From sequence record MT446416.1: 64,000 bases of DNA; one strand, 5' to 3'. This document shows, piece by piece, positions 12,740 to 34,591 of this stretch. Each line of letters starts with the position of its first letter. The stretch's first letter is position 1. This DNA comes from Escherichia virus TH47. Under the pieces are notes generated by a model. It made no database searches. It was not told the origin of the DNA and saw only the letters and a program-made list of their open reading frames with translations. Position numbers and translations under genes: made by a program.

Positions 12740-12750
12740 ATTGGTTTCCT

Positions 12751-13118: not shown

Positions 13119-13125
13119 GAGTACC

Positions 13126-13311: not shown

Positions 13312-13321
13312 AGTATTCTCT

Positions 13322-13717: not shown

Positions 13718-13728
13718 ATAGTACTCTT

Positions 13729-13914: not shown

Positions 13915-13915
13915 A

Positions 13916-14128: not shown

Positions 14129-14352
14129 AGAGCTACCAGTACTAAGATTTTTGATAATTGTTTATTGCTATCCCCGCAGATGTTGCTGTGTAAAATACTC
14201 GCGGTGAGGGTATCAAGTGCACTGTTCAGCATAAGGTTACATCCAGTACTGTTATGTGTTTTTAGCTCTATCAGCCACGAACTATCCGCGAGAAACTTCG
14301 CGTACTCTAGTTCAGTTAGAGTATTGATGTAGTACTTAAGTGTAGTTGTCAT
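14125..14352 (-). CDS. small leader-family protein (75 aa), first gene of array
   Basis: MTTTLKYYINTL; AAGGAG RBS; promoter 14378-14406. Confidence 0.6.
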   Translation of the reverse strand: MTTTLKYYINTLTELEYAKFLADSSWLIELKTHNSTGCNLMLNSALDTLTASILHSNICGDSNKQLSKILVLVAL

Positions 14353-14455: not shown

Positions 14456-15577
14456 ATGTTACCTTTTGTTAGAATGTTTGATTATGGAAATGAAGCACCT
14501 GATCCTAGTTCGGGATTTCGAATAATAAGTACAGGAGACGCATTACTATTAATTACTGAGAGTGGTGATTTGTGGGTGCGTGGTTATAACCGTTATGGCA
14601 AGTTAGGTATAGGTAATAACACCACTACCTATGTACTTGATTGGACGAAGGTTAGAAGTGATGTGAAGTTTGCGTGTGGTAGTGGATTGGTAACAGTTAT
14701 CTTTACTAAGGATAATCGTATATTGTACTGTGGTGACAAATGGTTTGAAACGGGTGGTGTTGGTAGTGCACAGATTTTCACATGGACAGATGTTACGCAC
14801 CAATTTGGGGTAGTAGATTTGAGTACAGTAAGGGATATGAAAATGTCTTATTACACGATTGGATTATTGACTACTAATAATCAATTATACGCTAAGGGAT
14901 TTGATAATAACCTATCATTTGGTGGGGTTACTAATAAGGCGACTGCTGTGTTTATTGCGAATAATGTACAAGAGTTGTATACGAGTTTAGTTAGTACTAT
15001 CTACGTTGATACAAGTGGTATATTACATCGTTGTGGCATGAGTGATAACGGTTCGTTGGGTAATAATGGTAGTTTAACTTCGTATCTAAGTTATTCACAG
15101 CCTGGTATGACGATTAAGGACATTGGAATGATGACTACGAACACTGGGTTATTATATACTGATTCTAGTGCACGCACGAGATATTTTATTGCTGGACAGA
15201 ACTTGAATAAACAGATGGGTAATGCGGCGTCTGCGAGTGCCATTACGAGTACTTACACAGAGCTTTCTGGTAGTGTTGATAAGTTTTCTTCTTTATGGGA
15301 GAATGATGGGATATTGATGACATTTGCTGTGGGTAAGAACACTAATCAGTTATTTTATGCTGGGACGAATACTTTTCATGCGAGTGGTGGTGAATCTTCA
15401 TATGCGGATACATATGAGTTAGTCCCGATGGTGTTTAATGACATACAGGAAGTGTTATGTGCACAGCGTTTATCGGTGGTACATGATTCTACGAAGTGGT
15501 ATTACTGTGGTGATGCTAATTCAATGTATGGTTTACCGGACGTAAGTACTTTTACTGAGTTACCGTTGCCCTTTTAA
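14456..15577 (+). CDS. RCC1-like repeat (beta-propeller) protein, paralog 1
   Basis: 373 aa; leader MLPFVRMFDYGN; repeated G-x-N-x-x-G-x-LG-x-G blocks. Confidence 0.7.
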   Translation: MLPFVRMFDYGNEAPDPSSGFRIISTGDALLLITESGDLWVRGYNRYGKLGIGNNTTTYVLDWTKVRSDVKFACGSGLVTVIFTKDNRILYCGDKWFETGGVGSAQIFTWTDVTHQFGVVDLSTVRDMKMSYYTIGLLTTNNQLYAKGFDNNLSFGGVTNKATAVFIANNVQELYTSLVSTIYVDTSGILHRCGMSDNGSLGNNGSLTSYLSYSQPGMTIKDIGMMTTNTGLLYTDSSARTRYFIAGQNLNKQMGNAASASAITSTYTELSGSVDKFSSLWENDGILMTFAVGKNTNQLFYAGTNTFHASGGESSYADTYELVPMVFNDIQEVLCAQRLSVVHDSTKWYYCGDANSMYGLPDVSTFTELPLPF

Positions 15578-15585
15578 TAATAGGT

Positions 15586-15616
15586 CAGTACTGAAATATG
15601 TACTGGTATTTTTTGT
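15586..15616 (+). terminator. candidate terminator
   Basis: CAGTA...TACTG hairpin followed by T-run. Confidence 0.4.
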
Positions 15617-15654
15617 AAATACTATATAATTATTTTAATTTTGGAGATTTAATC

Positions 15655-16824
15655 ATGTTACCTTTTGTTAGAATGTTTGATTATGGGAATGTAGCACCTG
15701 CACCACCGAAATTTAAAAAAATACTCACCAATAACTACAACGTTGCAGTTTTAACAAGCAGTGGGGATTTATATGTACGTGGGAATAATCAAAACGGTCA
15801 ATTGGGTTTAGGTCACAAAGAAAAAGTTACTACATGGACGTTTAGTACTTCTGGTGTTCAAGATTTTTGGTTTGGTAGTTCAACACTAGTGGTTAAAAAA
15901 ACCGATGATGAAATATGGTACAGTGGACAGTCAACCTCTGTTGGTATGCCAGGGGCATCTGTATCGGGGTGGACTTCTGCCATGCCGACATTCAATACAT
16001 TAACATTACCAATATTAGATATGGCAGTTAGTAATCAGACTACAAGTGTATTACTATCAGACCGAACAATATGGAGTACTGGGGTAGGAAGTAATGGTCA
16101 ATTGGGTAATGGAACTGCGACGAACAACATTTCAGGTAAATTCGTCAAAAGTACTGTTTCGACAGAAGAAGAACAATTACCAGTTAAATTGTTTGCCAGT
16201 AATTTAATGCATGGATATGTTACCGAGAACGGCTGGTTATACTACACTGGGCAACCCAATGCAGTTAGCACTAATGGCAGTGCGGTATATAGTGTTTATA
16301 CTAGTGCTCCTATTAGTCTAAGGAATACCATTAATATCAAGTACTATACAAATAATGGAACTTCGATGGCGATGGCTATTGGTACAGATCCAAATGGTAA
16401 GACCGTACTTGCTAATGGTGGCCCTAGGATATTTGGTGCACAGGCTGACGGAGTAAATGGTCAACTAAGTAATATTAGGCCATTTGCTGTTCAAACCGAA
16501 TCATTGATGCCTCCTGGGGATTTGGTAAGTATTGCTCATAATACTTCATATTATAACCAAGTTATTGCTACAACAGATGGTATATATTGTTGCGGCTACA
16601 ACCAATCTACACACGCTGGTATGTTAGGCATTGGTACATCTACTAACGCATTAGTATATACCAAAGCAATCGTACCTGATGGTTTTGATTATAGTAAATC
16701 GCAAATGGCAGGTGAGTATAACCGTACTTATATAACTGATGGTAATTTTGTATATAGTACAGGGACAGATGTCACATATGGTGGCATTAATAGCTTAGAA
16801 TTTGTAATAGATTCACCATTATAA
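15655..16824 (+). CDS. RCC1-like repeat protein, paralog 2
   Basis: 389 aa; MLPFVRMFDYGN; NGQLGLG / NGQLGNG motifs. Confidence 0.75.
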   Translation: MLPFVRMFDYGNVAPAPPKFKKILTNNYNVAVLTSSGDLYVRGNNQNGQLGLGHKEKVTTWTFSTSGVQDFWFGSSTLVVKKTDDEIWYSGQSTSVGMPGASVSGWTSAMPTFNTLTLPILDMAVSNQTTSVLLSDRTIWSTGVGSNGQLGNGTATNNISGKFVKSTVSTEEEQLPVKLFASNLMHGYVTENGWLYYTGQPNAVSTNGSAVYSVYTSAPISLRNTINIKYYTNNGTSMAMAIGTDPNGKTVLANGGPRIFGAQADGVNGQLSNIRPFAVQTESLMPPGDLVSIAHNTSYYNQVIATTDGIYCCGYNQSTHAGMLGIGTSTNALVYTKAIVPDGFDYSKSQMAGEYNRTYITDGNFVYSTGTDVTYGGINSLEFVIDSPL

Positions 16825-16832
16825 AAAGAAAA

Positions 16833-16862
16833 GCCAGTACTTGATACTGGCTTTTCTTTTTG
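16833..16862 (+). terminator. rho-independent terminator
   Basis: GCCAGTACTTGATACTGGC hairpin + TTTTCTTTT. Confidence 0.65.
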
Positions 16863-16897
16863 TATTAAATATAGTATAATGAATAAAGGAGGGAATT

Positions 16898-18007
16898 ATG
16901 TTACCTTTTGTTAGAATGTTTGATTACGGGAATATTGCACCTGAAGCTCCAAAGATAAAGAAAGTACTGTGCGGTCGTGATAATTTGTACGTCCTCTATG
17001 GCGATGGCTCACTTTATGGTTGTGGGGATAATGCGTATTTTCAGTTAAACGTTAAAAATGCAGCAACAAGAAATACTTGGATATTAATTTCAGAAGGTGT
17101 TACTGATGTATGGGCTGGGGCGTACAATATTCTTTATCTCAAGGGTGAAGAATTCATAATGCATGGAGTTACCACACAATTAGGCACAGGAGATACTATG
17201 ATTCCGTTGGGTGGTTTGAATGTTACTTCTTCATTTCCACATATATCTAATATTAAAATGATATCAATTGGTGCAGATACAATGCACTACGTTGATGCTA
17301 GTGGTTCGATTGTTTATGGTAGAGGCATGAATGGTAACTATTCACTCGGTGGTGGGTATTCCACGGCTCAGAGTACTTTTGTTTCAGTTATTAATACCGG
17401 AGCTAATACAGTCCTTGATATATTGGGTACACAGAATAACACATTAATATTAACATCAAATGGTGAACTTCTCGGTTGTGGGAGTAGTGGGTATGGTTCA
17501 CTTGGCGTAAGTCCAGGACAGTATACTACACTAGTAAGCAGGTTAACCAGTGTTAAACTGTTTGGTGGTAACAGTACTGGTACTCTTGCTTATTCAGCCA
17601 GCAATATATACAACGCAGGTTGGCAGTATGTTGGTCAACTTGGTAACGGTATTACAACGAACACACTACTATATCCATTTGCATTAAACTCCACTACTAT
17701 TGATAGTAAGATACATAAAATATCAAAATCAAGTACAACTTCACGTGTTAATATGTACGCAACAACCGAAGGAAAGATATATAGTACTGGTGAATTTGGT
17801 AGAAATGGTTCTGGTGGTAGTTTGAGTAGATTCACCAATACACTAACTTTAGATAATTACAACCCAGAAAAATCAGCATTATACACATGTGCAAATTTTA
17901 GTATAGTATTTGATGGTAATAATCAAATTTATGCTTGTGGTTCTTTTTTGTATGTGCCAGGTCCTATTACCACGAACTCATGGTCTGCAATTACAATGCC
18001 GAAATGA
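16898..18007 (+). CDS. RCC1-like repeat protein, paralog 3
   Basis: 369 aa; MLPFVRMFDYGN; upstream TATAAT-AAGGAGG cassette. Confidence 0.7.
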   Translation: MLPFVRMFDYGNIAPEAPKIKKVLCGRDNLYVLYGDGSLYGCGDNAYFQLNVKNAATRNTWILISEGVTDVWAGAYNILYLKGEEFIMHGVTTQLGTGDTMIPLGGLNVTSSFPHISNIKMISIGADTMHYVDASGSIVYGRGMNGNYSLGGGYSTAQSTFVSVINTGANTVLDILGTQNNTLILTSNGELLGCGSSGYGSLGVSPGQYTTLVSRLTSVKLFGGNSTGTLAYSASNIYNAGWQYVGQLGNGITTNTLLYPFALNSTTIDSKIHKISKSSTTSRVNMYATTEGKIYSTGEFGRNGSGGSLSRFTNTLTLDNYNPEKSALYTCANFSIVFDGNNQIYACGSFLYVPGPITTNSWSAITMPK

Positions 18008-18021
18008 TACTATAAAACTAT

Positions 18022-18051
18022 GCCAGTACTTGATACTGGCTTTTCTTTTTG
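18022..18051 (+). terminator. rho-independent terminator
   Basis: same GCCAGTACTTGATACTGGC hairpin + T-run. Confidence 0.65.
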
Positions 18052-18085
18052 ATTAAATATAGTATAAAGAATAAAGGAGGGAATT

Positions 18086-19243
18086 ATGTTACCTTTTGCT
18101 AGAATGGTTAAGTACGGAAATAGAGTTCCAGTACCTGTTGGGATTAAGAAGATAAACTCTGTCGGTACTAGTCAGATGATATTGACGAATACAGGCGACG
18201 TGTATGCATATGGTCAAAACACCAACTGGAGATTTGGTAGTGGTAGTTCTAGTGAGATTAGTGGGGGAGTTCCACAGATGGTAATGCAGGGTGTATCGGA
18301 TATGATATGTCATCCCAGATGTACATTATTAATAATGTCTGATGGACGTTATCTTGCTGCTGGGAACTCTACAGTACTGGGAGGTAGTTCAGGATTGAAT
18401 TATGTAGATGTTAGTTCTAAGTTCGCTACATTAGGAACTATCAAGAAAATTGATTTTACCCGAAGGAACAGTACTTCGTATACAGTATATGCATTAAACA
18501 CTGATGGTGATTTATATGGTATTGGATATGGAAACCGTGGTCAATTGGGGTTAGGTAAAAATAATAGTTTAGGTGCATTTACGAAGATAAACACCAATTG
18601 CAGGAATTTTGTAAGTTGTTCTTATGAGACGATAGTGGCTCTTAAGAATGATAATACTGCGTGGTTCTGTGGAAATTATTCGTTTATTAGTGGTAATACT
18701 GATGTTACTACATTTACTAACCTTGGTGATACTGCAATACTTAATATCTACGGTAATGGTTTAAATGGTGAGTTGTTATACACAAAAAGTGATGGTTTAT
18801 ATTTCCGTGGTTTAGCGTCGAACCGATATGGTTATTCATTCAGTTTAGAACAGCGTGCAATTAATAGCAAGATTACATTGCCGTTTGCTTATGATGTAAG
18901 TACGTTTAAGATTCTCACAGATGAACAGACAACAACCGTCAGTGTGTGGATTTCCAATTCAGACGTTCATTATGGGGTTGGTGCAAATAGCAGTAACACT
19001 AACAGAATGGGATTCACCAACCCAACTATGCCAGGTGCTGGTTCAAACTTTACATTACAGGATTTCAGTTCAGTGCAGGGCACTATTGAGACTGTTGTTA
19101 GTGCAAGTTATTATACAACTCTTATAAACTCTAATGGGAAAGTATTTGGCAGTGGGCCTTTTGATGATGATTCTTTAACTTATTTTCCTGGGAATAATCC
19201 AAAACTGATGAACTACACAGAAATTAAATTGAATATAAATTAG
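18086..19243 (+). CDS. RCC1-like repeat protein, paralog 4
   Basis: 385 aa; MLPFARMVKYGN; NRGQLGLG. Confidence 0.7.
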   Translation: MLPFARMVKYGNRVPVPVGIKKINSVGTSQMILTNTGDVYAYGQNTNWRFGSGSSSEISGGVPQMVMQGVSDMICHPRCTLLIMSDGRYLAAGNSTVLGGSSGLNYVDVSSKFATLGTIKKIDFTRRNSTSYTVYALNTDGDLYGIGYGNRGQLGLGKNNSLGAFTKINTNCRNFVSCSYETIVALKNDNTAWFCGNYSFISGNTDVTTFTNLGDTAILNIYGNGLNGELLYTKSDGLYFRGLASNRYGYSFSLEQRAINSKITLPFAYDVSTFKILTDEQTTTVSVWISNSDVHYGVGANSSNTNRMGFTNPTMPGAGSNFTLQDFSSVQGTIETVVSASYYTTLINSNGKVFGSGPFDDDSLTYFPGNNPKLMNYTEIKLNIN

Positions 19244-19255
19244 GAGAGAATAATT

Positions 19256-20416
19256 ATGTTACCTTTTGCTAGAATGGTTAAGTACGGAAACATTGCACCA
19301 TCCCCTGCTGCCATTAAAAAATTAGTTACCGGATATAACTGGGTTATGGTATTGGGTAGTAATGGTAAATTATATACCCGTGGTGCCAATTCAAGTGGTC
19401 AGTTGGGTTTAGGAGACAATACAGCCAGAACATCATGGACATTAACTGCATCGGATGTCATTGATGTATGGTGTGGTCAGTATGCCACAATGATTCACAA
19501 ATCAGATGGTACATATCAATACACAGGGAAACAATACAATGTGTGTATGGGTACATCATCTGTTAATGCATGGACTTCTATGCAAACTCTTATTAATCAA
19601 GTTAATTCTCAAGGAACAATTACAGAAATATCACTAGGAAATAACTTCATTTCAATACTTATGAGTAATGGGACCATTTGGTGTGGTGGTTATAACACAG
19701 GAGGACAGCTTGGCAATGCTTCTTATTCTAACAGTTTTACTACATTAGTAAAATCAATTATACCAAGTGGTGCGGTTCCGAAAAGGATTATTGCAGGTAT
19801 AAACATGTGTTCATTTATTGCCGAAAGTGGTAGATTATATTACACAGGTGAAGTTAATGGTGATACTAACAGTACTTCAACCGTGAGTTTTTATAATGTA
19901 TTCACATTGTCAGATAGATTACCAGCAACTGTTAGTACTATAGCATTTATAAGTACTGTTAATGATATGGTGCAAGGTATTGCAAGAAACAAAAGCACGT
20001 CAGTTGTTTCAGTGTACACAGGTGGTGATCAATTATATGGACAGGCTGCTACTGGTACTGATACTACAACAAAAATATTGACAACTGTTGTGGCAAATCA
20101 ACCACAAGGAAATATATTAGATATAGGATATGGGTACGGATATTACTCTAACTTTGTTATTACTGACACAGGTGTATACGTTGCTGGTAATAACTCAGCG
20201 ACTTCATACTATGGACAATTAAGTACAGGTTCAACTACTAACGTATTAACTTACACTAAGTCTATTACTCCTGATTTAAATTTCAATGATGTTAAAATCC
20301 AAAGTTGCTATGGTAAAACATATATGACAGATGGAAACAAAATATATTCAAGTGGTACTAACCTAGTATCTGGTGGTACTGCTAGTACTATATTTGTTGA
20401 AGATTCACCAATTTAA
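19256..20416 (+). CDS. RCC1-like repeat protein, paralog 5
   Basis: 386 aa; MLPFARMVKYGN; 12-nt spacer from paralog 4 (co-transcribed). Confidence 0.75.
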   Translation: MLPFARMVKYGNIAPSPAAIKKLVTGYNWVMVLGSNGKLYTRGANSSGQLGLGDNTARTSWTLTASDVIDVWCGQYATMIHKSDGTYQYTGKQYNVCMGTSSVNAWTSMQTLINQVNSQGTITEISLGNNFISILMSNGTIWCGGYNTGGQLGNASYSNSFTTLVKSIIPSGAVPKRIIAGINMCSFIAESGRLYYTGEVNGDTNSTSTVSFYNVFTLSDRLPATVSTIAFISTVNDMVQGIARNKSTSVVSVYTGGDQLYGQAATGTDTTTKILTTVVANQPQGNILDIGYGYGYYSNFVITDTGVYVAGNNSATSYYGQLSTGSTTNVLTYTKSITPDLNFNDVKIQSCYGKTYMTDGNKIYSSGTNLVSGGTASTIFVEDSPI

Positions 20417-20423
20417 AATAATG

Positions 20424-20452
20424 CCAGTACTCTGTACTGGTATTCTTATTTG
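20424..20452 (+). terminator. rho-independent terminator
   Basis: CCAGTACTCTGTACTGG hairpin + T-rich tract. Confidence 0.55.
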
Positions 20453-20486
20453 TATTAAATATAGTATAATGAATAAAGGAGGAATT

Positions 20487-21623
20487 ATGTTACCTTTTGC
20501 AAGAATGGTTAAGTACGGGAATATAAAAGTAAAGAGTACTATCCAAAAAGTTATCCTTGGTGGTGGTGGTCAATGTGTGGTAACATTACTCAGTGATGGT
20601 AGAGTGTATGGACGTGGTTACAACACTACACATGGGTTAGGTACTGGTACAACAACATTCGTAAGTGATTGGGTATTAATGGGCGATAATATTGTTGATA
20701 TCCATTCAAATGGTGTTCCTGGCACATTCCTTATCACCAAAGAAAATAGAATTTTGTATTCTGGTTGGGCGACACCAATCAATGGTACAACTGCACATTA
20801 TACACGTTTCACTGATTTAACATCAACTGTATTTGCTGCGGTGGATGTTAGTAATATTAAAACAATTACTGGAAATATTAATGCTACAATGGTCCTGTTG
20901 AATGATGGTTCTCTTTATGGTAGTGGTGCAAATACAGGTGTTATTGGTAATGGTAGAAATGTTGCATTATCAACACAAACATATGTAACTAATGATGTGA
21001 GAGAAGTAAAAACATATGGATCCATGACTACTATAACAAAAAATAACAATCAAATACTGGGTAGTGGTCTTTTATACCACGGCGTGAACGGTACAAATTC
21101 AATAATAAACACGTCTTCATATACATTACTGTACACATTACCGAGTTCTGATTGTTTTCAATTTGCATTTGATGAATATACATTTGGATATGTTGACCCT
21201 AGCACTAATACTTCTTATATAAGAGGTATACCAATAAATGGTTCATTGGGTAATGGTGTTACTAATAATACAGCAGTTACAACATGGGTTACTAAAGTTT
21301 GGAATACACCAATTGATAGTTCTATACCTAATAAATCACATACACTTAACCATGTCTCCTTGTTCAATGATGGAAACTTATGGACAACTGGTGCATCTAA
21401 TGTCGGTTATTCCAATGGTACAAATAGCACAACAGCTAATACTTGGACCAGTTCATCTAATTTACCATTCAACACCAATAACATCACAGACTATGCGTTG
21501 GGTAGTAATATTACTGTGGTGGTAATCGACTACAGGTCTATGTACATACTAGCTAACAACTTAATTGCTGGAACTACATCAACCACTTACAAATTTGAGC
21601 CATATAATTCTCCACCAGTTTAA
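20487..21623 (+). CDS. RCC1-like repeat protein, paralog 6
   Basis: conserved start MLPFARMVKYGN at 20487 after AAGGAGG; ORF-track extension to 20373 rejected. Confidence 0.7.
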   Translation: MLPFARMVKYGNIKVKSTIQKVILGGGGQCVVTLLSDGRVYGRGYNTTHGLGTGTTTFVSDWVLMGDNIVDIHSNGVPGTFLITKENRILYSGWATPINGTTAHYTRFTDLTSTVFAAVDVSNIKTITGNINATMVLLNDGSLYGSGANTGVIGNGRNVALSTQTYVTNDVREVKTYGSMTTITKNNNQILGSGLLYHGVNGTNSIINTSSYTLLYTLPSSDCFQFAFDEYTFGYVDPSTNTSYIRGIPINGSLGNGVTNNTAVTTWVTKVWNTPIDSSIPNKSHTLNHVSLFNDGNLWTTGASNVGYSNGTNSTTANTWTSSSNLPFNTNNITDYALGSNITVVVIDYRSMYILANNLIAGTTSTTYKFEPYNSPPV

Positions 21624-21629
21624 TATAAT

Positions 21630-21658
21630 GCCAGTACTTGAGTACTGGCTTTTCTTTT
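21630..21658. terminator. bidirectional terminator
   Basis: GCCAGTACTTGAGTACTGGC hairpin flanked by T-run, between convergent genes. Confidence 0.6.
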
Positions 21659-22307
21659 ACATATTATATAATGTGAATGCAGTCACTTTACCAGTTGTTG
21701 TTAGTTCATTATAAAGATACTCCAAGATTCTCGCACACTCTAAGTATATCTCGATATCATCATGAATAAGTGAGTACTGGAATAGCTGTTCTTCAGATAA
21801 TTTGTATTGACTCCCTCTTAATGAATTGAGAATATCTTTCACATCATCAAGTACTGGGTAAAGTACGAAATCTTCATCATATTTTGAAGCAATAAATTCA
21901 AATCCACCACCATCAGTACTAGATATACCAATCAGTACTTTATCAATCAAGTTAATGTTTATATAACGGTTGTGATTTGGGTGAATTGAAATCTCAAACA
22001 TACGAGTACTGTTACAATCAACATCAATATACAAATATACATCATTGAATTTATAAGTTAAGCAACCATACTCAATGTAATCAGAGCAAATAATTGATGA
22101 ATTTTTTCTCGTCTCTGCGTAATGCATATTGATATTCTTTTTACGCATAAGTAATTCGAACTTTGCACTAAACTTACCACCAGTAAGATAATTAGTATTA
22201 GGACGTTTGTAACTGGCAACTGGCCTATGGGATGATGAAAAGTATCTTTTTGTGAATCGTTTCTGTTTAGTGAAATATTCTTGATAGAACTTATTTCTTT
22301 TATTCAT
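21657..22307 (-). CDS. long leader-family protein (216 aa)
   Basis: start MNKRNKFYQEYF at 22307 with GAGG RBS; C-terminal domain paralogous to 12068..12739 and FQYS family. Confidence 0.6.
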   Translation of the reverse strand: MNKRNKFYQEYFTKQKRFTKRYFSSSHRPVASYKRPNTNYLTGGKFSAKFELLMRKKNINMHYAETRKNSSIICSDYIEYGCLTYKFNDVYLYIDVDCNSTRMFEISIHPNHNRYININLIDKVLIGISSTDGGGFEFIASKYDEDFVLYPVLDDVKDILNSLRGSQYKLSEEQLFQYSLIHDDIEIYLECARILEYLYNELTTTGKVTAFTLYNM

Positions 22308-22385
22308 GAGTGCCTCAATTAAATTGCTGTAAAATTGTACGTTATAAAATGAGTAAATAAAGTATAACACAAGGAGATTTTTATT

Positions 22386-23510
22386 ATGTTACCTTTCGTA
22401 TTGTTATTTGATTATGGGAACGAAAAACAAGAAAGTTCTTATGATGTTAGTGTATATGGAAACAATAACTACATTTTAAATAAACAAACTGGAAACCTTT
22501 TTGCATCTGGTGCTGCGGCATTTATGGGTGATAACACCGTTAAGTATTATATTACCCAAATCGAATCAAATGTTCATAGCTGTGAGATAGGCTTCCTATC
22601 ATCATGGATAATTAAGAAGGACAAAACTGTTTTCATTTTAGGAAACAAAAGTTCAATTGGTCTAACCGATTCGACCACATCATGGTTTGAAATTACAAAT
22701 TTATTTTCTGCTGTTCCTGAAATATGGGACAACCTATTTGAATGTAAAGTTCAATTGGGATATAACTGCATACGTGTTATGACACCACTAGGTTCAATCT
22801 ATGCGATTGGCACAAACACTTATGGTGCATTGGGTACTGGTACTACATCCTCATCAACTTCGTTCGTTAAAAGTGGTGCTGTGGATGCTGTACGCATGGA
22901 ATCAACTGAACGTTCAGTTTTCTATCAAAACAGTTCTGGAAAATGGTTTGGATGTGGTGATAACACATATGGTATACTAGGTCTAGGAACTACCGCCAGT
23001 CGTGTAAACTCATACACCGCACCAGTATGGACTAATGCAGAAGCTGTTAGCTTCTCTAACCGTGGTATCATATACAGCCTCAATGGTACTCTATACTCAT
23101 GTGGTGACAAAGTTAATGGTCAGCTAGGGGATGGATATACACAAAGCATAGACGCTGCCAGGAGCACACCATACACCATAGGAACCGCATTCCAAATTGG
23201 TAAGGCAATAACATCAGCTACACAAGCATCAGCCAACGTATTCATTGGTAAAGATAATAAGTTCTATGGTACTGGTAGTATTGCTGCTGGTATAAATGGT
23301 AGTGCTAGTGCTACATTAAGTAAAGTTACTGCGTTATCAGCATCACTACCACCTGACATTACATACAATGATATTATAACATTTAATACAGGGACCGTAA
23401 CTTTTATTCAAGCAAAAGGACAACTATATTATGTTGGTAGAAGAACTTACATAGATAATAGTTCAGACGTTACCACACAGTTCAGTTTAATTGGTGGCTT
23501 AGATAATTAA
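22386..23510 (+). CDS. RCC1-like repeat protein, paralog 7
   Basis: 374 aa; MLPFVLLFDYGN; YGALGTG / YGILGLG / NGQLGDG. Confidence 0.7.
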   Translation: MLPFVLLFDYGNEKQESSYDVSVYGNNNYILNKQTGNLFASGAAAFMGDNTVKYYITQIESNVHSCEIGFLSSWIIKKDKTVFILGNKSSIGLTDSTTSWFEITNLFSAVPEIWDNLFECKVQLGYNCIRVMTPLGSIYAIGTNTYGALGTGTTSSSTSFVKSGAVDAVRMESTERSVFYQNSSGKWFGCGDNTYGILGLGTTASRVNSYTAPVWTNAEAVSFSNRGIIYSLNGTLYSCGDKVNGQLGDGYTQSIDAARSTPYTIGTAFQIGKAITSATQASANVFIGKDNKFYGTGSIAAGINGSASATLSKVTALSASLPPDITYNDIITFNTGTVTFIQAKGQLYYVGRRTYIDNSSDVTTQFSLIGGLDN

Positions 23511-23517
23511 AATTAAT

Positions 23518-23548
23518 CCAGTACTATAATAGTACTGGATTTTTTATT
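23518..23548. terminator. bidirectional terminator
   Basis: CCAGTACTATAATAGTACTGG hairpin + T6. Confidence 0.6.
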
Positions 23549-23918
23549 ATAACATACGTTTTTTACGAATAGTATTGTGGATATTTTTTAAGTAGTTCAC
23601 ACCTTTACACAACCCATAAAATACACCAGCACATACACCAAATACAGGTATCATACATGCAAACATCGTTATCAATTCCCACATCTCCATGCCATCTTGA
23701 TTCGGTCCAAGGTCAAAGATAACAACCGAAACCAAACCTGTGATACTTAGCATATAATATGCCATGAAGATAAAAAAAGAAACAATACCAACATCAGAGC
23801 GAACTGAATTTAGCATATTATATACTGGGGTTACACAGAAGTAATACAATAACCAAACCAAAGAGCCTAAACTAAACACAATAATAGTAATGATCGAAAA
23901 TATTTCACGATAACTCAT
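23547..23918 (-). CDS. small polytopic membrane protein, family member 1
   Basis: 123 aa, 3-4 hydrophobic helices, basic C-terminal tail. Confidence 0.6.
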   Translation of the reverse strand: MSYREIFSIITIIVFSLGSLVWLLYYFCVTPVYNMLNSVRSDVGIVSFFIFMAYYMLSITGLVSVVIFDLGPNQDGMEMWELITMFACMIPVFGVCAGVFYGLCKGVNYLKNIHNTIRKKRML

Positions 23919-23919
23919 T

Positions 23920-24282
23920 TTAGTTCCTCTTACCTAAACGCTCATGGATTTCGGAAATCTTATTATACATCCACGCCATCAACTCAACGGATGCACAGAG
24001 AATAACCACACACAGTGTTAGTGAACATACCATAATACCAAATGTTATAAAATTCAAACTCGATGTTAATAATGCAACCAGCATTAGAATAAAACCAAAA
24101 TTGAATGCTGTACTCAACACAGTATATGCTGGACTATATCTCCTTTGTATTACATCATATATATTTGATAATGGTCGCTTATGGAAGTACTTCCCAATGC
24201 ACACGAATGCATTCAGTGAGAAGATAAATGTATACGCCATTACCATTAATTGACCAATAAAAGATAATTCAATATTATTCAT
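23920..24282 (-). CDS. small polytopic membrane protein, family member 2
   Basis: 120 aa; 1-nt gap to neighbour. Confidence 0.6.
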   Translation of the reverse strand: MNNIELSFIGQLMVMAYTFIFSLNAFVCIGKYFHKRPLSNIYDVIQRRYSPAYTVLSTAFNFGFILMLVALLTSSLNFITFGIMVCSLTLCVVILCASVELMAWMYNKISEIHERLGKRN

Positions 24283-24283
24283 G

Positions 24284-24655
24284 TTATCCTCGTTTGCGGT
24301 ATTTGATGCTTTGGTGCATTCTCTGAAAATGTGGAACTAATACATATTGTACGGTTTGCCAAATTACCATCAGATTATGGACAGCACCACCGAGTAGACC
24401 AAACATTAGACAGATAATTACCAGTACTGGATCACCATCTACCATACCCCATTTGAATATATGTAAAATCCATACAGTGATAAGTAGTAATAAACTAATC
24501 CAATACGTAGTAAAAAATCCCGCATGTAATTCATAATCATCAGCAATTTCATCGTATACGGTTTCCAAGAAGGATACACAGAAGAACTTGCCAATAATAA
24601 CAATTGTACTAATAAACAACATAGCAGTTAATATAATAAGTGCAATTTCCATCAC
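24284..24655 (-). CDS. small polytopic membrane protein, family member 3
   Basis: 123 aa. Confidence 0.6.
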   Translation of the reverse strand: MMEIALIILTAMLFISTIVIIGKFFCVSFLETVYDEIADDYELHAGFFTTYWISLLLLITVWILHIFKWGMVDGDPVLVIICLMFGLLGGAVHNLMVIWQTVQYVLVPHFQRMHQSIKYRKRG

Positions 24656-24966
24656 ATCCCTCGTTTACGCTTTTGATTGCGTCTAAATTCGGTTAGCCCA
24701 CGAATAATCGGTGGCATCAGACTACATAAAAAAATAACAGTTGTTGGCAATAACATGAAGTCAATCATTGCTGTATTAACAGGTGGATCACATACCAAAT
24801 AATACAAACACGTAATACTAATTATGGTTGACCCAATAAAAAGAATACAAAATTCTTTTATCTGTTTTTCAACATAATCAAACATCTTCAATACAAATAA
24901 AAATCCAACCCAACACATAATAAAATAGAATGAATACAACGTGTAAATCAATGTTACGATATCCAT
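24652..24966 (-). CDS. small polytopic membrane protein, family member 4
   Basis: 104 aa; ATGA overlap. Confidence 0.6.
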   Translation of the reverse strand: MDIVTLIYTLYSFYFIMCWVGFLFVLKMFDYVEKQIKEFCILFIGSTIISITCLYYLVCDPPVNTAMIDFMLLPTTVIFLCSLMPPIIRGLTEFRRNQKRKRGM

Positions 24967-25304
24967 TAGTACCTCGCATCAGGAACTTTAGAACGCAATT
25001 TATGAACGGCTGGGATCAACAACAAACTTACATATGCAATAGTTGAACCCCAATAGAATACTAATATAATTGGTTCACCATTAGAACGTAAACCTCTACT
25101 AATCATTGAGTAGTGAATAATAGGCATAAACATCGCCATAAAAAACCATGCGTGTAATTTTAATTGCAGCATGTTATCAGAGATGAATACTGAAATTGGT
25201 CGTTTAAAGAACCACATCAGAAAGTAGAACCCAGCACTAACAATATAGTACATAGTACTAACTTTCATATACCACGGCATTAAGTGTAAAAAATATTCCA
25301 TCAT
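24966..25304 (-). CDS. small polytopic membrane protein, family member 5
   Basis: 112 aa; W(F/Y)FK(R/K) motif after first helix. Confidence 0.6.
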   Translation of the reverse strand: MMEYFLHLMPWYMKVSTMYYIVSAGFYFLMWFFKRPISVFISDNMLQLKLHAWFFMAMFMPIIHYSMISRGLRSNGEPIILVFYWGSTIAYVSLLLIPAVHKLRSKVPDARY

Positions 25305-25648
25305 TCCTCCGGTATCTTGTTTCGAAGTTCAATCATAACACAACAAAGTTTAATGAACAAGTAAAAAACTACACATATCATACCTATGGTTCCATAAACG
25401 ACTGAAAAAGCTGGTAGTGCTTTTCCGGCGAGAACAGCCACAACACATGCTATAAATGTTGATGCAAACAATGATTGATTAATGAAAGAATTCATAAAAT
25501 CTTCACCATTACGCTTATAGAATTGTCGTTTAAAATACCATCCTAGAAACATAACTACCCAAAATGTTACATAACCTGTTAGAATAATCCCTGCAATTGA
25601 ATGTGCAACAGAACTACTCTTTAAAAACTCAAGATAAGATTCAAACAT
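25301..25648 (-). CDS. small polytopic membrane protein, family member 6
   Basis: 115 aa. Confidence 0.6.
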   Translation of the reverse strand: MFESYLEFLKSSSVAHSIAGIILTGYVTFWVVMFLGWYFKRQFYKRNGEDFMNSFINQSLFASTFIACVVAVLAGKALPAFSVVYGTIGMICVVFYLFIKLCCVMIELRNKIPEE

Positions 25649-25986
25649 TAGAAGTCCCCACGAATTTTTGCTCTACCATTAATGATGAGATTAAACAAGT
25701 ATATCAGCACCCAAATTAGTAATCCAAGGAATACAATATATTGTGATATTGAGTTCAACTGTGGATTAGCACAATAAATTAAGTGTGCGATAAGACCAAC
25801 AATTGCAAACATACCTTGGATAATAGTGAAAAGAAGTAGTGAAATGTTTCCATCAGGATACAGTTTGAAAACGATTTTCTTTTTAAAATACCATAGTACT
25901 ACAACTAGTGCATGATAAAAGAAAAAACCAAACAGATAAATCAAAGTAATACTAAGCATTGTATCTGAATTAAAAAACTCAAGCAT
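25648..25986 (-). CDS. small polytopic membrane protein, family member 7
   Basis: 112 aa; first gene behind promoter 26016-26044. Confidence 0.6.
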   Translation of the reverse strand: MLEFFNSDTMLSITLIYLFGFFFYHALVVVLWYFKKKIVFKLYPDGNISLLLFTIIQGMFAIVGLIAHLIYCANPQLNSISQYIVFLGLLIWVLIYLFNLIINGRAKIRGDF

Positions 25987-26015: not shown

Positions 26016-26044
26016 ATAGTACTACACTATGGTAGTACTGTCAA
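26016..26044 (-). promoter_or_regulatory. promoter of membrane-protein operon
   Basis: TTGACA-N17-TACTAT on minus strand (same type as small-array promoter). Confidence 0.5.
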
Positions 26045-26053: not shown

Positions 26054-26824
26054 TTAAATTTTCTCAAGGAACAAGTTTTCGCACTGCTCTTCCCAATCAT
26101 ACGGGTTGTTGTTGTATACTGCTGAAATCAACAGAGGCATACGCAGTGAAGGAGCACGAAGTGCATCTTCATGTTTCAGCATCCAATTCAGGATTGCTTT
26201 GCTACCATTACTATTAACACCTTTAGTTGACAGGATGTTGGTCTTGTTCATTACGTTTTCAATGTGAATCATGATATCGCTTTTAGTCTGGATCTGTAAG
26301 TCAACATACACAGAGCGAGACATAAGAGCAGCATAGTGAGCAGACATTTTGGTTTTAGCTTTAGCATTCAGTGCTAAATCTTTGTTAGTAATGAATACGA
26401 TACGACCGTTAAAATCAAAGCTGTTAGGGATACCGTTGGTAGTTAAGTACTTAGAGCTAGTCATGTAAGACACAGTACGTTTACCGCTGTCCAGTACTGC
26501 TTTGAGCAGGTTCATACCGTCTTCTGAATCAAAGATGCTGTCCATATCATCCAGTACTAATACGTTAGTGCTGTGACGATTCTTGTACAGAACTTCATAC
26601 AGAGCAAGAGTAGTCATCTTACCACTGATAGTAACTACGTTCCATTCTGCTGCGTCATGAGCTTTCTGGAGGCGTTGTGACAGGGTGTAAGTCTTACCAA
26701 CACCAGGTGCACCGCTGACAACCATACTTTTTACAGTACTGCTATCATCGAGCAAACACTCAAGAGCAACCATCATGGAGTTGAAGTTTTTCTGGATTTG
26801 AATGCTACGTGCTTCTCTGGTCAT
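26054..26824 (-). CDS. AAA+/P-loop ATPase
   Basis: Walker A GAPGVGKT and Walker B VLVLDDMD; 256 aa. Confidence 0.75.
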   Translation of the reverse strand: MTREARSIQIQKNFNSMMVALECLLDDSSTVKSMVVSGAPGVGKTYTLSQRLQKAHDAAEWNVVTISGKMTTLALYEVLYKNRHSTNVLVLDDMDSIFDSEDGMNLLKAVLDSGKRTVSYMTSSKYLTTNGIPNSFDFNGRIVFITNKDLALNAKAKTKMSAHYAALMSRSVYVDLQIQTKSDIMIHIENVMNKTNILSTKGVNSNGSKAILNWMLKHEDALRAPSLRMPLLISAVYNNNPYDWEEQCENLFLEKI

Positions 26825-26895: not shown

Positions 26896-28044
26896 TTATT
26901 TCTTGTCTAAGATTTGTACTTCACCATAAATCTGTACGATTTGCTTTTCTGGATTACCTTCGATAAGTTTTAGAAAAGATTTCAGTACTGCAACGTGGTC
27001 TTCATAGTATGCAATCCTAATGAAGTTGTAACCGTTGTTGATGGCGTACTCAGTTTTTATTGCGTCTTTTATCTTTCTTTGTTCAAAAGCACTTTTGCCG
27101 CCCCATAATTTGATTGATTGAAAATGTTGTACTCCATCATATTCCAGAAGGATTCGTTTACTTTCAATAAATCGATCAAAAGGTAATGGCTTTTTGAACT
27201 TACAATCAATGAAGCGTTTCTCTTTTATGGTATCATCTTCTAACATACCATCAATATCAACTAAATTCTTACTCTCACCTGATGAACAGGTAGGACATGA
27301 AGACTCAGATGATATATAGTTATGATATGATGGATAAAATGGGTTATTACAATCATTACACTGTAAATGTAATTTTGTTTTTGATGTTTCATAAACACCT
27401 CCCACAAATCCAATAAAGGTATTATTACAAACTGCGTTTCTTTTATCTATTTCATATTTGACTACTAGAATATTCAAACGAATCTTTTTTGCCGAGCTGT
27501 AATCACGACATTCAACACAATTATGACCATTAAGAAAATCATAAATGTTCTCACATAAACGAGTATGGTTGTTTTTACATTTGTACCAAAATTTAGATTT
27601 GAATTTTGTAGTAAATTCACCTTCAAATTTGATAAATGTAATAGATTCACGTTTACACTCTTTTTGTATTTCTTTTAATGCATCAGATTCAGATATTTTG
27701 ATAGTGTTTTGGTACTCTTTTCTTTTCTTCTTACCACATATCTGACATCCACCAGAGATAAGATAACTTTTCAGTGAACTTGTACATAAAGTGCTGCATG
27801 TTCCACATCTAAACAGAACTTTATTCTTTTCTAGTCCAAAAAATTGATTACTGTTTGATATCTGTAAGCCAAAAATAGTATCTTCTTTTTCAATGGCTTT
27901 TAGTTTAATTTCATCAATTCTAACGATAGTTTTTTTATTTTTTACAGGAACATTTTCTATTTTCATGTACTCAAATTTAGTACATAATTCTTCAATAATA
28001 TAAACTTTCTCACCATCTTCATTTAAATAGTACTTTTCAAACAT
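26896..28044 (-). CDS. zinc-ribbon-repeat protein with C-terminal PD-(D/E)xK-like (DUF559/Vsr-like) nuclease domain
   Basis: multiple CxxC pairs; C-terminal ...DCKF...LLEYDGVQHF...FIRIAY pattern. Confidence 0.55.
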   Translation of the reverse strand: MFEKYYLNEDGEKVYIIEELCTKFEYMKIENVPVKNKKTIVRIDEIKLKAIEKEDTIFGLQISNSNQFFGLEKNKVLFRCGTCSTLCTSSLKSYLISGGCQICGKKKRKEYQNTIKISESDALKEIQKECKRESITFIKFEGEFTTKFKSKFWYKCKNNHTRLCENIYDFLNGHNCVECRDYSSAKKIRLNILVVKYEIDKRNAVCNNTFIGFVGGVYETSKTKLHLQCNDCNNPFYPSYHNYISSESSCPTCSSGESKNLVDIDGMLEDDTIKEKRFIDCKFKKPLPFDRFIESKRILLEYDGVQHFQSIKLWGGKSAFEQRKIKDAIKTEYAINNGYNFIRIAYYEDHVAVLKSFLKLIEGNPEKQIVQIYGEVQILDKK

Positions 28045-31712: not shown

Positions 31713-33555
31713 TGTTTAATCCATTTATTCAACAATACCCAACTTCACAATCTCATACCCGTCCAGATAGCCGTAGTAACACTCAGGTGTTTCATAAGAT
31801 GAACCATCATGGATGCCCTGGCATTGACTTTTGGAATTCTCAAGCAATCGTTGCAGTACTGATACGTCATCATGAACGTAATACAAGTTAGCATATAGGT
31901 CAGTTACAATACAGTACTCCAACATGTCAAATGTATCAATCGAAATTTCAACCTTAGCAAATCGTTTCTTTTCTTTATTACACAATGCGTACATATTAAT
32001 CTCCATAATCAAGTTTAACCAACTTACCACACAGATACCCAAAGTTTTCAGGCTTCGCATCTGAATAGAAGAAGTCAGTACTTAACTCTGAATTCAATGC
32101 TAAAGCACACAACTCCACCCAAAATAAACCCCTATGTTGTACTGGCTTACAACGTTTCTGTACAGTTACTAGTCCAGTACATGATGACCACAAAGTAGGA
32201 CAGATACCAGTATCACTACGCTTGGAGTACTGCATCCATCAGTCGATTACGAGTACGTAGTTTCATATAAGTTATCCTTATTTCAAAGAATCATAGTAAG
32301 CAGTGTCAAAGATTGGAGTCATAATAACATAGTCAATACGGTCAATGTAAGTTGAACTCCACATTTCTGGTTTGTCATAAAATTGACGCTCGCGTTCATT
32401 CATACGAGTCAGTACTTCTTCCAATTTACTACGTGAAGCCATCAATGTATTACGCGATCCATAAGTGAAGTACTCAGTCCATTGATATTCATATTCAGTA
32501 CTGATAGATTGAATAGTACCATCTTTGAAATGAGCTAAGGCATATCCTTTCTCTACAAAGTTATCAGGTGGAAGAACACCATCTGGATTAGTTTTCAATG
32601 CTTTGGTTAACTTTTCTTTAATTTCAGTTAACGTGCATACTGAACGAATGTTCTTCAGGTTTGATACTTGAAAATCACTGTACTTTCCAAAGAAAAATAC
32701 ACGCCAATCTTTAGGTTCATTATCAGATACGGTAATATTCGGATGATGGGCGAGTAAACGAAGAAGGCCAGCTTTGTGACCGTTAATGTAGATCTCATGG
32801 ATGTGGTTAGCAGTTTTCTTAAAAGTAATCATGACAATTCCTCGATTGTGGGGATGAGAAGTTCATCCCCTTGATAAACATTATACAGTACTGAATGAGT
32901 TTGTCAACTCAAAATAAATTCATTTCATGTGCGTATTGTGGTTCAAGATGCGATAAGTTTTTGAAGCTTTCTTTCAACTCAGCATCATCTACATACACCG
33001 TGCCTGGTACATTCCCCATAGTGAAACCTACCCACACAGTCATGTCACCAGTCCCTAAGCGTGGCATTGATAGCGAACCATCAGGTGAAACATCAAACGC
33101 TACACTGAAGTCATCAGTAACAACGTCATAACCATTTTCGAGAATAATACATCCACTATCTTTAAGCTTCTGAATGTGGATAGCAGCCTCTACAGCACGT
33201 TTGAAGTTATAGTAAGACTCTTTATCCTCAAACATTGATTGTTTAATCAGACGCTTGTTTAGCTCGGTTACTTTGTGCATTTGACGCATTACTTATCCAT
33301 CTCCAACAGTTGTAGAATTTCATAAGAGCCTGGTGGTGCTGGATTCCTGATCTCAGGGAATTGAGTACTTTTAGGATTACCACCAGCATTAAATTCATCA
33401 AGTAATGATTCGAGTTCATTCCTATCATGAACAACAAACACGCAATATCCAGTACCTTCTTCAAGAACAGTAGTTGAACCCGCACAATCCCATACTGTAT
33501 CAATACATAATAATTCTTTAGTGTTTTTGTTACGCAATGCAAACATATATGTCTC

Positions 33556-33924
33556 CTATCGATTCGGCATATTCTTTCGTAGTCGCAAGAGAAATTCAAC
33601 CACTGACCATGTTGAAATGAAGGTAATATAAGTTGCCAAGAATCCGGTAAGAATAAATGCAACCAGCGTACTACCATTTGGTCCATCTGCTTTAATACCA
33701 ATTATACCATCAACTACAGTGAAACATGTAGCCATTAGCGTGTAGCAGACGTACAACACAAAGAAGAACTCATTCTCCATTGAAGGGTAGAAACGGTTAA
33801 ACACTTTATAAAATTTAAAGTACAGTAGGATTATACCAACAAAGACATAAAATGTAAACAGGGTTGTTATAATATATGAGATTAGGTTCAAATTATACAT
33901 ATTAACGCTCCGGTAAATTATCAC
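33556..33924 (-). CDS. small polytopic membrane protein (family, second cluster)
   Basis: 122 aa; FKFYKVFNRFYP motif; C-terminal RLRKNMPNR. Confidence 0.6.
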   Translation of the reverse strand: MIIYRSVNMYNLNLISYIITTLFTFYVFVGIILLYFKFYKVFNRFYPSMENEFFFVLYVCYTLMATCFTVVDGIIGIKADGPNGSTLVAFILTGFLATYITFISTWSVVEFLLRLRKNMPNR

Positions 33925-34249
33925 GTAAGGTTTTAATTCGATTATACAATTTCACTGAAACATTACCAAATATACCATATCCAAGTACTAAAATGTATGC
34001 AATAAGCATAGTAATAATTACTATAGTGCCAAAACTATAATGTACACTACTGATACCCAATGTAGTTTCAACGATTATTTGGGAAAGAGAAAGAATCAAA
34101 AGTACAACTACAATAGGATGATTTGGATACATCCTATTAAATAGTGTTTTGTACTTGAAGAAGCAAAGCACTCCACCAAATAAGAAGTAAACAATGTAAA
34201 TGCAAGCAACAGCATAGGCAAACACGTTAGTGTAATAAATCATTATCAA
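33902..34249 (-). CDS. small polytopic membrane protein (family)
   Basis: 115 aa; FKYKTLFNRMYP; C-terminal LRDNLPER. Confidence 0.6.
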   Translation of the reverse strand: MIMIYYTNVFAYAVACIYIVYFLFGGVLCFFKYKTLFNRMYPNHPIVVVLLILSLSQIIVETTLGISSVHYSFGTIVIITMLIAYILVLGYGIFGNVSVKLYNRIKTLRDNLPER

Positions 34250-34252
34250 TCC

Positions 34253-34591
34253 TTATTTTTCAGGGATATTAGAACGCCATACATCAAGGCGATGGATCAG
34301 CTCAAAAAACAACCATACTGGAAAGAAAGATATCATAACACCAAGTGATAACCCGGTCAATACCGATACCAGATTTAATTCATCAGTACTATATCCACAT
34401 ATCAGTACTTCTAATATTCCCCACGTACACGCACAGAATACCAAGAATGAAATCGGTGCATCATAATAGATACGTTCATATAAAGTAGTGTATCGGAAGA
34501 ATGCAATAATGTAGCAAAACATGAAATATACCCACATCAATGACACTACATAGAATGACACTTTATTAATTAATTCAAAATTTTGTTCCAT
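34253..34591 (-). CDS. small polytopic membrane protein (family)
   Basis: 112 aa; FRYTTLYERIYY; C-terminal WRSNIPEK. Confidence 0.6.
   Translation of the reverse strand: MEQNFELINKVSFYVVSLMWVYFMFCYIIAFFRYTTLYERIYYDAPISFLVFCACTWGILEVLICGYSTDELNLVSVLTGLSLGVMISFFPVWLFFELIHRLDVWRSNIPEK

Follow-up and report, generated by a model that had tools for sequence, protein, structure and literature searches.

In the present study we describe a tandem array of small membrane-protein genes in Escherichia virus TH47, located at 23547-25986 on the minus strand of a 64,000-nt stretch of its genome (record MT446416.1; hereafter the window). The seven genes of the array, A1 to A7, are real and under purifying selection, and they form one operon with conserved elements at both ends, a sigma70-type promoter and a terminator. 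Profile comparisons place them, together with three genes of a second operon (B1 to B3), in a single deeply diverged family. PHROGs 19454, 19046, 27396, 33258, 26405, 27618, 19285 and 16874, which are separate in databases, are by these comparisons one superfamily. At least eight separate PHROGs of unknown function are thereby merged into a lineage-specific membrane-protein superfamily with a defined (predicted) topology, a fixed address 3' of nrdC.10, old paralogs, and evolution in the manner of a hypervariable cassette. Phages of the RaK2/121Q jumbo group are being isolated for therapy, and about three quarters of their genes lack an assigned function.

Genes of the array

The 4-kb region around the array is 97-98% identical to Escherichia phages vB_Ec-M-J, WPEC5 and Turkey3, and ∼85% identical to PBECO4 and 121Q (genus Asteriusvirus, jumbo myoviruses of 350-385 kb). 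A preliminary description of the window had proposed a family of small polytopic membrane proteins expanded in tandem here, encoded by seven consecutive minus-strand open reading frames (ORFs) of 104-123 aa, with three further members at 33556-34591 and a related pair at 53839-54704. All seven ORFs are present, and they span exactly 23547-25986. The array and the second operon comprise the following genes, with transmembrane (TM) segments counted from hydropathy:

25648-25986, minus strand: A1, 112 aa, three TM segments, motif LWYFKKK, tail NGRAKIRGDF, phrog_19454
25301-25648, minus strand: A2, 115 aa, three TM segments, motif GWYFKRQ, tail LRNKIPEE, phrog_19046
24966-25304, minus strand: A3, 112 aa, three weaker hydrophobic segments, motif MWFFKRP, tail LRSKVPDARY, phrog_27396
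24652-24966, minus strand: A4, 104 aa, three TM segments, without the WFFK motif, tail RRNQKRKRGM, phrog_33258
24284-24652, minus strand: A5, 122 aa from ATG, three TM segments, motif GKFFCV, tail HQSIKYRKRG, phrog_26405
23920-24282, minus strand: A6, 120 aa, three TM segments, motif GKYFHKRP, tail HERLGKRN, in no PHROG
23547-23918, minus strand: A7, 123 aa, three TM segments, motif LYYFCV, tail HNTIRKKRML, phrog_27618, final gene of the operon
34253-34591, minus strand: B1, 112 aa, family member, tail WRSNIPEK, phrog_19285
33902-34243, minus strand: B2, 113 aa from ATG, family member, tail LRDNLPER, phrog_19285, ortholog start MIYYTN
33556-33900, minus strand: B3, 114 aa from ATG, tail LRKNMPNR, weak phrog_19285 match, orthologs start MYNLNL

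A3 is the best-conserved paralog of the array and gene A4 its most divergent member. Orthologs indicate ATG starts for A5 (24652), B2 (34243) and B3 (33900); an alternative GTG start at 24655 would lengthen A5 to 123 aa, but the PHROG match begins only at residue 2 and makes this start the less likely one. B1 to B3 form a separate operon 7.6 kb upstream of the array.

One family resolved by profile comparison

Raw pairwise similarity among the array proteins is weak, the best pair (A1-A2) sharing 27% identity, and PHROGs split the seven into six families and one orphan (A6). Profiles were therefore built from ortholog groups and compared. Eight Asteriusvirus loci supplied the orthologs, among them those of the divergent phages JNE01, Turkey5, A4 and SD-1_S14. 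HHalign linked the groups as follows:

A2-A3: E=7.2e-8 over 90 columns
B1/B2-B3: E=8e-9 over 104 columns
A5-A7: E=9e-6 over 117 columns
A5-A6: E=3.6e-5 over 39 columns
A1-A2: E=1.4e-4 over 40 columns
A2-B3: E=1.1e-4 over 98 columns
A6-A7: E=7.7e-4

When profiles were merged, sub-clade I (A1, A2, A3 and B) matched sub-clade II (A5, A6 and A7) at E=3.5e-5 over 102 columns, and the sub-clade II profile matched that of gene A4 at E=4.3e-5 over 96 columns. The alignments are collinear and essentially full-length. Column-reversed null profiles, which retain composition and hydrophobicity, gave E≥0.005, compared with 1e-4 to 1e-8 for the real pairs. A search of 130 window ORFs with hidden Markov models (HMMs) of the sub-profiles produced cross-matches (E 3e-5 to 6e-3) that were confined to the A and B genes; other three-TM ORFs among the 130 were not matched. 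In this search A1 was found by the B profile at 2.7e-5 and by the sub-clade II profile at 5.5e-5, and the sub-clade I HMM matched gene A4 at 8.4e-5 and A6 at 5.8e-5. The links above the reversed nulls and the restriction of cross-matches to A and B genes lead us to treat the ten genes as one deeply diverged family.

The tandem expansion proposed in the preliminary description is thus borne out at the level of profiles, as is the membership of the three genes at 33556-34591 (A1-A3 profile against B profile, E=1.1e-7). The pair at 53839-54704 (C1 and C2) does not belong: all family HMMs gave E>0.4, with C1 appearing once at E=9.6. These two proteins are longer (143-145 aa) and fall into the unrelated phrog_22013 and phrog_15839 ('membrane protein').

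All of the window genes except A6 match one of the superfamily PHROGs at 1e-46 to 1e-60 (B3 weakly). A2 and gene A4 in addition match phrog_16874 weakly, which is annotated 'membrane protein' in the category 'moron, auxiliary metabolic gene and host takeover'. The annotation of the related phage CBB lists the array genes as membrane proteins resembling those of GAP32 ('conserved putative membrane proteins').

Membrane topology and conserved segments

Kyte-Doolittle analysis gave three hydrophobic segments in each array protein, weaker in A3 (17-residue means 1.3-1.9). Three to four hydrophobic helices had been suggested; such helices are found in every protein, and by hydropathy their number is three. 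Charge was counted per segment in 123 non-identical family members. Lysine plus arginine (K+R) averaged 0.42 in the N-terminus, 2.98 in loop 1, 0.55 in loop 2 and 4.46 in the C-terminus, and the third TM segment lay above the hydropathy threshold in 91% of members. Under the positive-inside rule this bias points to an N-out/C-in topology with three spans. The proteins would accordingly span the cytoplasmic membrane with their N-terminus and loop 2 exposed to the periplasm, and with loop 1 and the basic C-terminal tail on the cytoplasmic side. An AlphaFold2 model of A2 consists of three long helices at a predicted local distance difference test score (pLDDT) of 72.5; the model of A7 is all-helical and of low confidence (pLDDT 60.5). 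A lack of TM segments, which would have refuted the preliminary description, is indicated by none of these three proxies (hydropathy, charge bias and AlphaFold2).

The motif W(Y/F)FK(R/K), reported after the first helix of each protein, occurs exactly in A1, A2 and A3; A5 to A7 carry GK(F/Y)F(C/H) or YYFC at this place, and gene A4 has neither. A more general signature of the family is an aromatic-basic juxtamembrane segment after the first TM segment, with the consensus LWFFK..Y, or GKFFC in sub-clade II. The C-terminus is basic on average, as described (K+R 4.5 vs 1.6 aspartate plus glutamate), but not in every member, since the last nine residues of A2 are net acidic. The tail consensus reads L-R-x-K-I-P followed by basic residues, or H..IK.RKRG in sub-clade II. 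Information content averages 1.3 and 1.6 bits/column in the two cytoplasmic segments, and 0.7-1.0 in the helices and periplasmic parts. Conservation in the family thus appears to sit on the juxtamembrane segments predicted to be cytoplasmic, while the helices and periplasmic parts diversify.

Operon structure and promoter

The genes of the array are tightly packed. Start and stop codons overlap or lie one nucleotide apart, as had been noted: the first four junctions read TAATG, ATGA, TAATG and TGATG, and the last two are 1-nt gaps. The Shine-Dalgarno sequence (GGAG/GAGG) of each downstream gene is embedded in the final codons of the gene before it. Two elements delimit the operon:

26016-26044, minus strand: sigma70-type array promoter, -35 element TTGACA at 26044-26039, -10 element TACTAT at 26021-26016
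23515-23541: bidirectional intrinsic-terminator-like hairpin, AATCCAGTACT-loop-AGTACTGGATT, with a 12-bp stem, between the array and a convergent RCC1-like gene

The promoter, TTGACA-N17-TACTAT, had been named in the preliminary description, and it was recovered at 26044-26016 as the top-scoring site of the region. It matches 10 of 12 consensus positions, occupies the sole intergenic gap of the region and is kept in six of seven Asteriusvirus relatives; its 17-nt spacer holds an inverted repeat, GTACTAC..GTAGTAC. Promoters of the same type, with a perfect -35 element, lie at 11 intergenic minus-strand sites within the window. The region-wide count of promoter-consensus sites is not above the shuffled expectation (14 vs 17.2), and the call therefore rests on position, quality and conservation. 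The stem of the terminator hairpin is kept in five of six relatives.

RpoD-like promoters mark a presumed early host-takeover region of short ORFs in CBB, and the late promoter of these phages is reported to be of the ATAAATA type (PMC5259590). Judged by promoter sequence, the array operon would be transcribed by host RNA polymerase at the onset of infection.

Distribution, copy number and paralog order

An exhaustive HMMER search of 1.84 billion representatives returned 34 clusters at E≤1e-3, and a word-indexed search with a ten-sequence profile just 27. The 34 clusters comprise proteins of 99-127 aa aligned over nearly the whole profile, with the exception of the truncated P0032 (56 aa) and P0040 (99 aa). 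Some bridge the sub-clades: P0039 is A1-like with a FRENIPG tail, and P0052 stands between A5 and A6. All clusters that were traced came from RaK2-like jumbo phages, including Asteriusvirus; sources beyond that genus were Salmonella phages Munch and SE_PL, Klebsiella phage fENko-Kae01, Escherichia phage EJP2 and Erwinia phage Hallingskeid. A search of IMG/VR with the A3 sub-alignment found 121Q and RaK2 themselves and nothing else. Across these collections the family appears restricted to RaK2-like jumbo phages.

The layout of the locus is constant. A gene for a 256-aa P-loop nucleoside triphosphatase (NTPase) is followed by the tandem array and usually by a terminator and convergent RCC1-like genes. 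The array lies immediately downstream of the NTPase gene in the window, the eight Asteriusvirus loci, EJP2, Hallingskeid, Munch, RaK2, CBB and XbC2; the second operon, B1 to B3, is the exception to this position. HMM-supported members number 6 in EJP2, 7 in the window, 8 each in 121Q, ph0011, JNE01 and RaK2, and 10 in Hallingskeid. The array of Munch has two, plus two unscored three-TM ORFs, and the members in the Mimasvirus phages CBB and XbC2 are divergent (best E=1e-9) with variant motifs.

Paralogs follow each other in RaK2 in the order seen in Asteriusvirus: A1-like, A3-like, A4-like, A5-like and A7-like. The RaK2 orthologs were matched at E=4e-18 for A3 (L013_8270), 6e-19 for the A4-like gene and 1e-23 for the A7-like gene. 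Because the order is common to both, the main duplications predate the split of the genera. More recent duplications are also seen, namely an extra A1-like gene (A0/A1) upstream in 121Q and ph0011, a duplicated pair in RaK2, and a doubled gene A4 in JNE01 and Turkey5. Some records contain frameshifted or fragmented copies (121Q gp228/229 and a fragment in SD-2_S15).

Other genes are found within or behind the arrays of relatives. A 42-aa soluble ORF (MKPEQWIIEDMR...WYVKVLNSKE) is embedded in the arrays of EJP2, Hallingskeid and Munch (L016 7152-7280, L009 5613-5741 and L010 5689-5817) and is far better conserved than its membrane-protein neighbours; it is absent from the 64-kb window (tblastn best E=4.9). 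At the distal 3' end of the array, relatives gain and lose unrelated accessory genes (L004 6148-6807, L001 6473-7675, L002 6136-6687 and L014 9747-10370). These include a ∼215-aa protein in 121Q, ph0011 and JNE01, a DUF1190-annotated gene in CBB, and in phage A4 a 183-aa protein with an N-terminus that resembles, by eye, a lipoprotein signal. The window lacks these distal genes.

Allele reassortment and selection beside nrdC.10

The gene adjoining the array is:

26054-26824, minus strand: NTPase gene, 256 aa, P-loop/AAA, homolog of T4 NrdC.10, phrog_1250

Its Pfam matches are generic AAA/P-loop families only. By tblastn it is ∼38% identical over its full length to nrdC.10 of T4-like phages (1309 records), and the RaK2 record labels its copy nrdC.10. 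Elsewhere in public records its annotation varies between clamp loader, FleQ, thioredoxin and ATP-binding protein. In the T4-like locus that was examined (ime09), no family member adjoins nrdC.10. Genes downstream of nrdC.10 in T4-like phages, nrdC.9, nrdC.8 and nrdC.7 ('predicted membrane protein'), were considered as candidates, and none are family members. A possible ATPase and membrane-protein pair in phi92, suggested by the labels Phi92_gp231 and gp233 in ph0011, was also rejected: gp231 is a 121-aa hypothetical protein and gp233 has 75 aa, and 125-148.6 kb of phi92 holds no ORF matching the family (best E=0.005, 9.7 bits). A second gene of ∼256-260 aa within the CBB and XbC2 arrays was considered as a duplicated NTPase, and BLASTP found no similarity.

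The NTPase and the array show different histories. Phage A4 has an NTPase 96% identical to that of the window and array proteins merely 28-63% identical. In ph0011 the pattern is the opposite, with an NTPase at 59% and array proteins at 59-89% (77-89% for A1 to A5). In a nucleotide comparison with phage A4, identity is 92% as far as the NTPase stop codon (26052), and from this junction on none is detectable across the array. Alleles of the NTPase and the array thus reassort, and their adjacency is conserved without sign of co-evolution. These patterns suggest that the array behaves as a hypervariable cassette of variable copy number, recombining at a fixed hotspot. Upstream of the NTPase gene, 26896-28044 encodes a DUF4379 treble-clef zinc finger that is annotated in relatives as an HNH or homing endonuclease, and this neighbour may help to account for the hotspot.

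The ratio of nonsynonymous to synonymous substitution rates (dN/dS) is 0.10-0.42 for all seven array genes in comparisons with 121Q and ph0011 (dS 0.1-2.7), which indicates real genes under purifying, albeit relaxed, selection. For the NTPase it is ∼0.04 where the same alleles are compared.

Possible functions

We tentatively favour the reading that the array proteins are early inner-membrane effectors, acting individually, which alter the host envelope for the benefit of the phage, with superinfection exclusion as their likeliest function. Host RNA polymerase would transcribe the array early from the sigma70-type promoter, the paralogs would insert N-out/C-in into the inner membrane and each act on its own, and DNA entry of competing phages would be blocked, different paralogs covering different targets. 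The preliminary description had raised exclusion, immunity or membrane remodelling as candidate roles, an idea that fits the early-type promoter, the predicted topology, the 2-10 copies and what appears to be a hypervariable recombining cassette. If the proteins are exclusion or envelope effectors, they bear on how giant lytic phages defend the infected cell over long latent periods and are relevant to interference among phages of a cocktail, and the locus is a natural place to seek phage-phage or phage-defence interactions.

Known exclusion proteins resemble the array in part. Imm and Sp of T4 are small inner-membrane superinfection-exclusion proteins, each single-copy, with two and one TM segment, respectively. 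Like them, the array encodes what are predicted to be small, non-virion inner-membrane proteins of a large lytic myovirus with host-type, presumably early promoters; promoter type and predicted topology agree with an early small inner-membrane protein. Unlike them, it has three TM segments per protein and 7+3 paralogs in tandem, without similarity in sequence or fold. In CBB, the neighbours detected by mass spectrometry are annotated as virion structural proteins and the array genes as membrane proteins. HK97 gp15 and P22 SieA are small polytopic inner-membrane proteins proposed to block DNA entry, and are single genes of temperate phages. The array shares with these the small polytopic inner-membrane design and the character of fast-evolving accessory ('moron'-like) genes, but its conserved multi-paralog arrays belong to strictly lytic jumbo phages, and no homology was detected.

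Several observations weigh against exclusion by individually acting effectors. No member of the family has detectable similarity to a characterised exclusion, immunity or holin protein. Pfam gave nothing at threshold, and its sub-threshold matches were mutually inconsistent, to unrelated membrane DUFs; at E≤1 in Pfam or E≤0.1 in PHROGs there was no holin, Imm or other characterised family. The PHROG matches are of unknown function, apart from the weak phrog_16874 matches of A2 and gene A4. Foldseek returned nothing significant (best E=7 in PDB and 3.1 in BFVD), and the best match of an HMM search of PDB sequences was an unrelated transporter (E=0.14). Promoter type is the only indication of early timing; we found no transcriptome for the genus in the literature on Asteriusvirus and its relatives, nor any description of this family in that on Asteriusvirus and RaK2-like phages, where the Munch paper remarks only on the adjacent tandem RCC1-like genes and counts 13 such repeats. 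The calling of TM segments rests on hydropathy, charge bias and AlphaFold2. The aromatic-basic motif and the basic tail could be mere topogenic or interfacial features, and the tail sequence must in part accommodate the Shine-Dalgarno site of the gene that follows. Finally, conservation of order implies that each paralog has long been kept, which suits non-redundant subunits of a complex no less than it does interchangeable effectors.

A possible though doubtful alternative is that each paralog inhibits or re-tunes a different host membrane protein, or counters host defences, so that the array serves host takeover and not phage exclusion. Targets might include transporters, proteases, sensors of division or stress, and abortive-infection effectors that act at the membrane. 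The early-type promoter, the predicted topology, the hypervariable cassette with its changing copy number, and the contrast of conserved cytoplasmic segments with variable TM and periplasmic parts speak for this explanation as they do for exclusion, and phrog_16874, matched weakly by A2 and gene A4, is in the host-takeover category. The proteins have no similarity, however, to characterised anti-defence or host-inhibitor proteins, and present data fit host modulation and superinfection exclusion alike.

Speculatively, exclusion and host modulation might be combined in a modular, recombining 'exclusion and takeover battery', in which each anciently diverged paralog neutralises a different inner-membrane route or factor and alleles of the whole array are swapped, at the fixed hotspot beside nrdC.10, between jumbo phages that are nearly identical elsewhere. 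Its targets would include the DNA-entry conduits of competing phages or membrane-acting host defence effectors. If true, such a battery would be a phage counterpart of the bacterial defence island, built on one three-helix scaffold.

It is unlikely that the paralogs assemble with one another into a single hetero-oligomeric membrane complex, serving as a channel, anchor or scaffold and perhaps working with the NrdC.10-like NTPase through the conserved cytoplasmic motifs. Overlapping or abutting genes with embedded Shine-Dalgarno sequences would allow translational coupling to match subunit amounts, the order A1, A3, A4, A5, A7 is kept between RaK2 and Asteriusvirus, the array lies directly 3' of the NTPase gene in all RaK2-like phages examined (gaps of 0-10 nt in RaK2, EJP2, Hallingskeid, Munch and CBB), and the conserved parts of the proteins are predicted to face the cytoplasm. 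A fixed complex would not, however, be expected to vary from 2-4 copies in Munch to 10 in Hallingskeid, nor to undergo duplications and losses in single lineages. In addition, alleles of the NTPase and the array reassort freely across a recombination boundary, a promoter separates the two in the window, NrdC.10 is found in ∼1,300 phage records with no family member beside it in the one T4-like locus, and three further members sit in a separate operon.

We consider it rather improbable that the genes are largely dispensable, weakly selected ORFs of no specific function that persist by tandem duplication and recombination, possibly with the help of adjacent homing endonucleases. Their dN/dS of 0.1-0.4 is far above that of the NTPase (∼0.04), frameshifted or fragmented copies occur (121Q gp228/229 and SD-2_S15), and HNH and other endonuclease genes adjoin the locus. 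Against this, purifying selection acts on all seven genes, orthologs are retained in the same order in another genus (RaK2), the promoter, the terminator and the Shine-Dalgarno sequences have been conserved, and no RaK2-like genus examined lacks the family. If the effects of these proteins are marginal, the array is an ordinary case of the multigene families of jumbo phages.

Class I holins, such as lambda S105, have three TM segments, an N-out/C-in topology and a charged cytoplasmic C-terminal tail. The array proteins share this architecture in size (104-123 aa, within the ∼100-125 aa of such holins), three TM segments, predicted N-out/C-in orientation and a mostly basic tail, and the CBB paper gives the RaK2-like endolysin an N-terminal TM domain and reports no holin (PMC5259590); a holin- or antiholin-like control of lysis timing, serving a signal-anchor-release (SAR) type endolysin, is nevertheless highly improbable, given that permissive searches of Pfam and PHROGs matched no holin family, the promoter belongs to the sigma70 early and not the late ATAAATA type, the array lies far from the endolysin (gp224-232 vs gp532 in 121Q), seven to ten tandem holins would be unprecedented, and no Met-Lys-Met dual-start motif is found.

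Other features of the window

The palindrome AGTACT occurs 228 times across the window, compared with 21.7 expected from base composition (10.5-fold); the next most enriched palindromic hexamer reaches only 2.7-fold. Flanking positions favour C and G, with CAGTACTG found 58 times. The sites lie within ORFs in 72% of cases and are densest at 4-16 kb. AGTACT is present within several sigma70-like promoters (CAGTACTGTATAAT), in the spacer of the array promoter and in the stem of the array terminator; examples of associated sites are 23515-23541, 26016-26044, 48184-48211, 44225-44252, 32880-32907 and 9578-9605. The enrichment could reflect a protein-binding or modification site. The GC-rich palindromes CAGCTG, AGGCCT, AGCGCT and ACCGGT have zero occurrences in the window.

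Convergent with the membrane-protein operon, seven tandem genes for proteins of ∼370-400 aa occupy 14456-23510 on the plus strand. Six of them abut at 14456-21623, and the seventh (22386-23510) is parted from these by a minus-strand ORF at 21657-22307. This seventh gene, the sole one of the seven tested, encodes an RCC1-repeat protein (RCC1/RLD Pfam matches). An RCC1 array also flanks the membrane-protein array in 121Q, Munch, EJP2, XbC2 and Hallingskeid.

The presumed early region of the window is generally rich in small membrane proteins. Additional small predicted membrane ORFs (78-145 aa, with 2-3 hydrophobic segments), unrelated to the family, are found at 40467-44478 and 53839-54704. On the minus strand at 10313-14352 there are ∼15 consecutive small ORFs, mostly of 59-84 aa with one of 223 aa, which are possibly another tandem family. 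Both strands of a ∼1.3-kb stretch at 8246-9599 lack ORFs of 45 aa or more; the stretch might hold RNA genes, and a sigma70-like promoter is located at 9578-9605.

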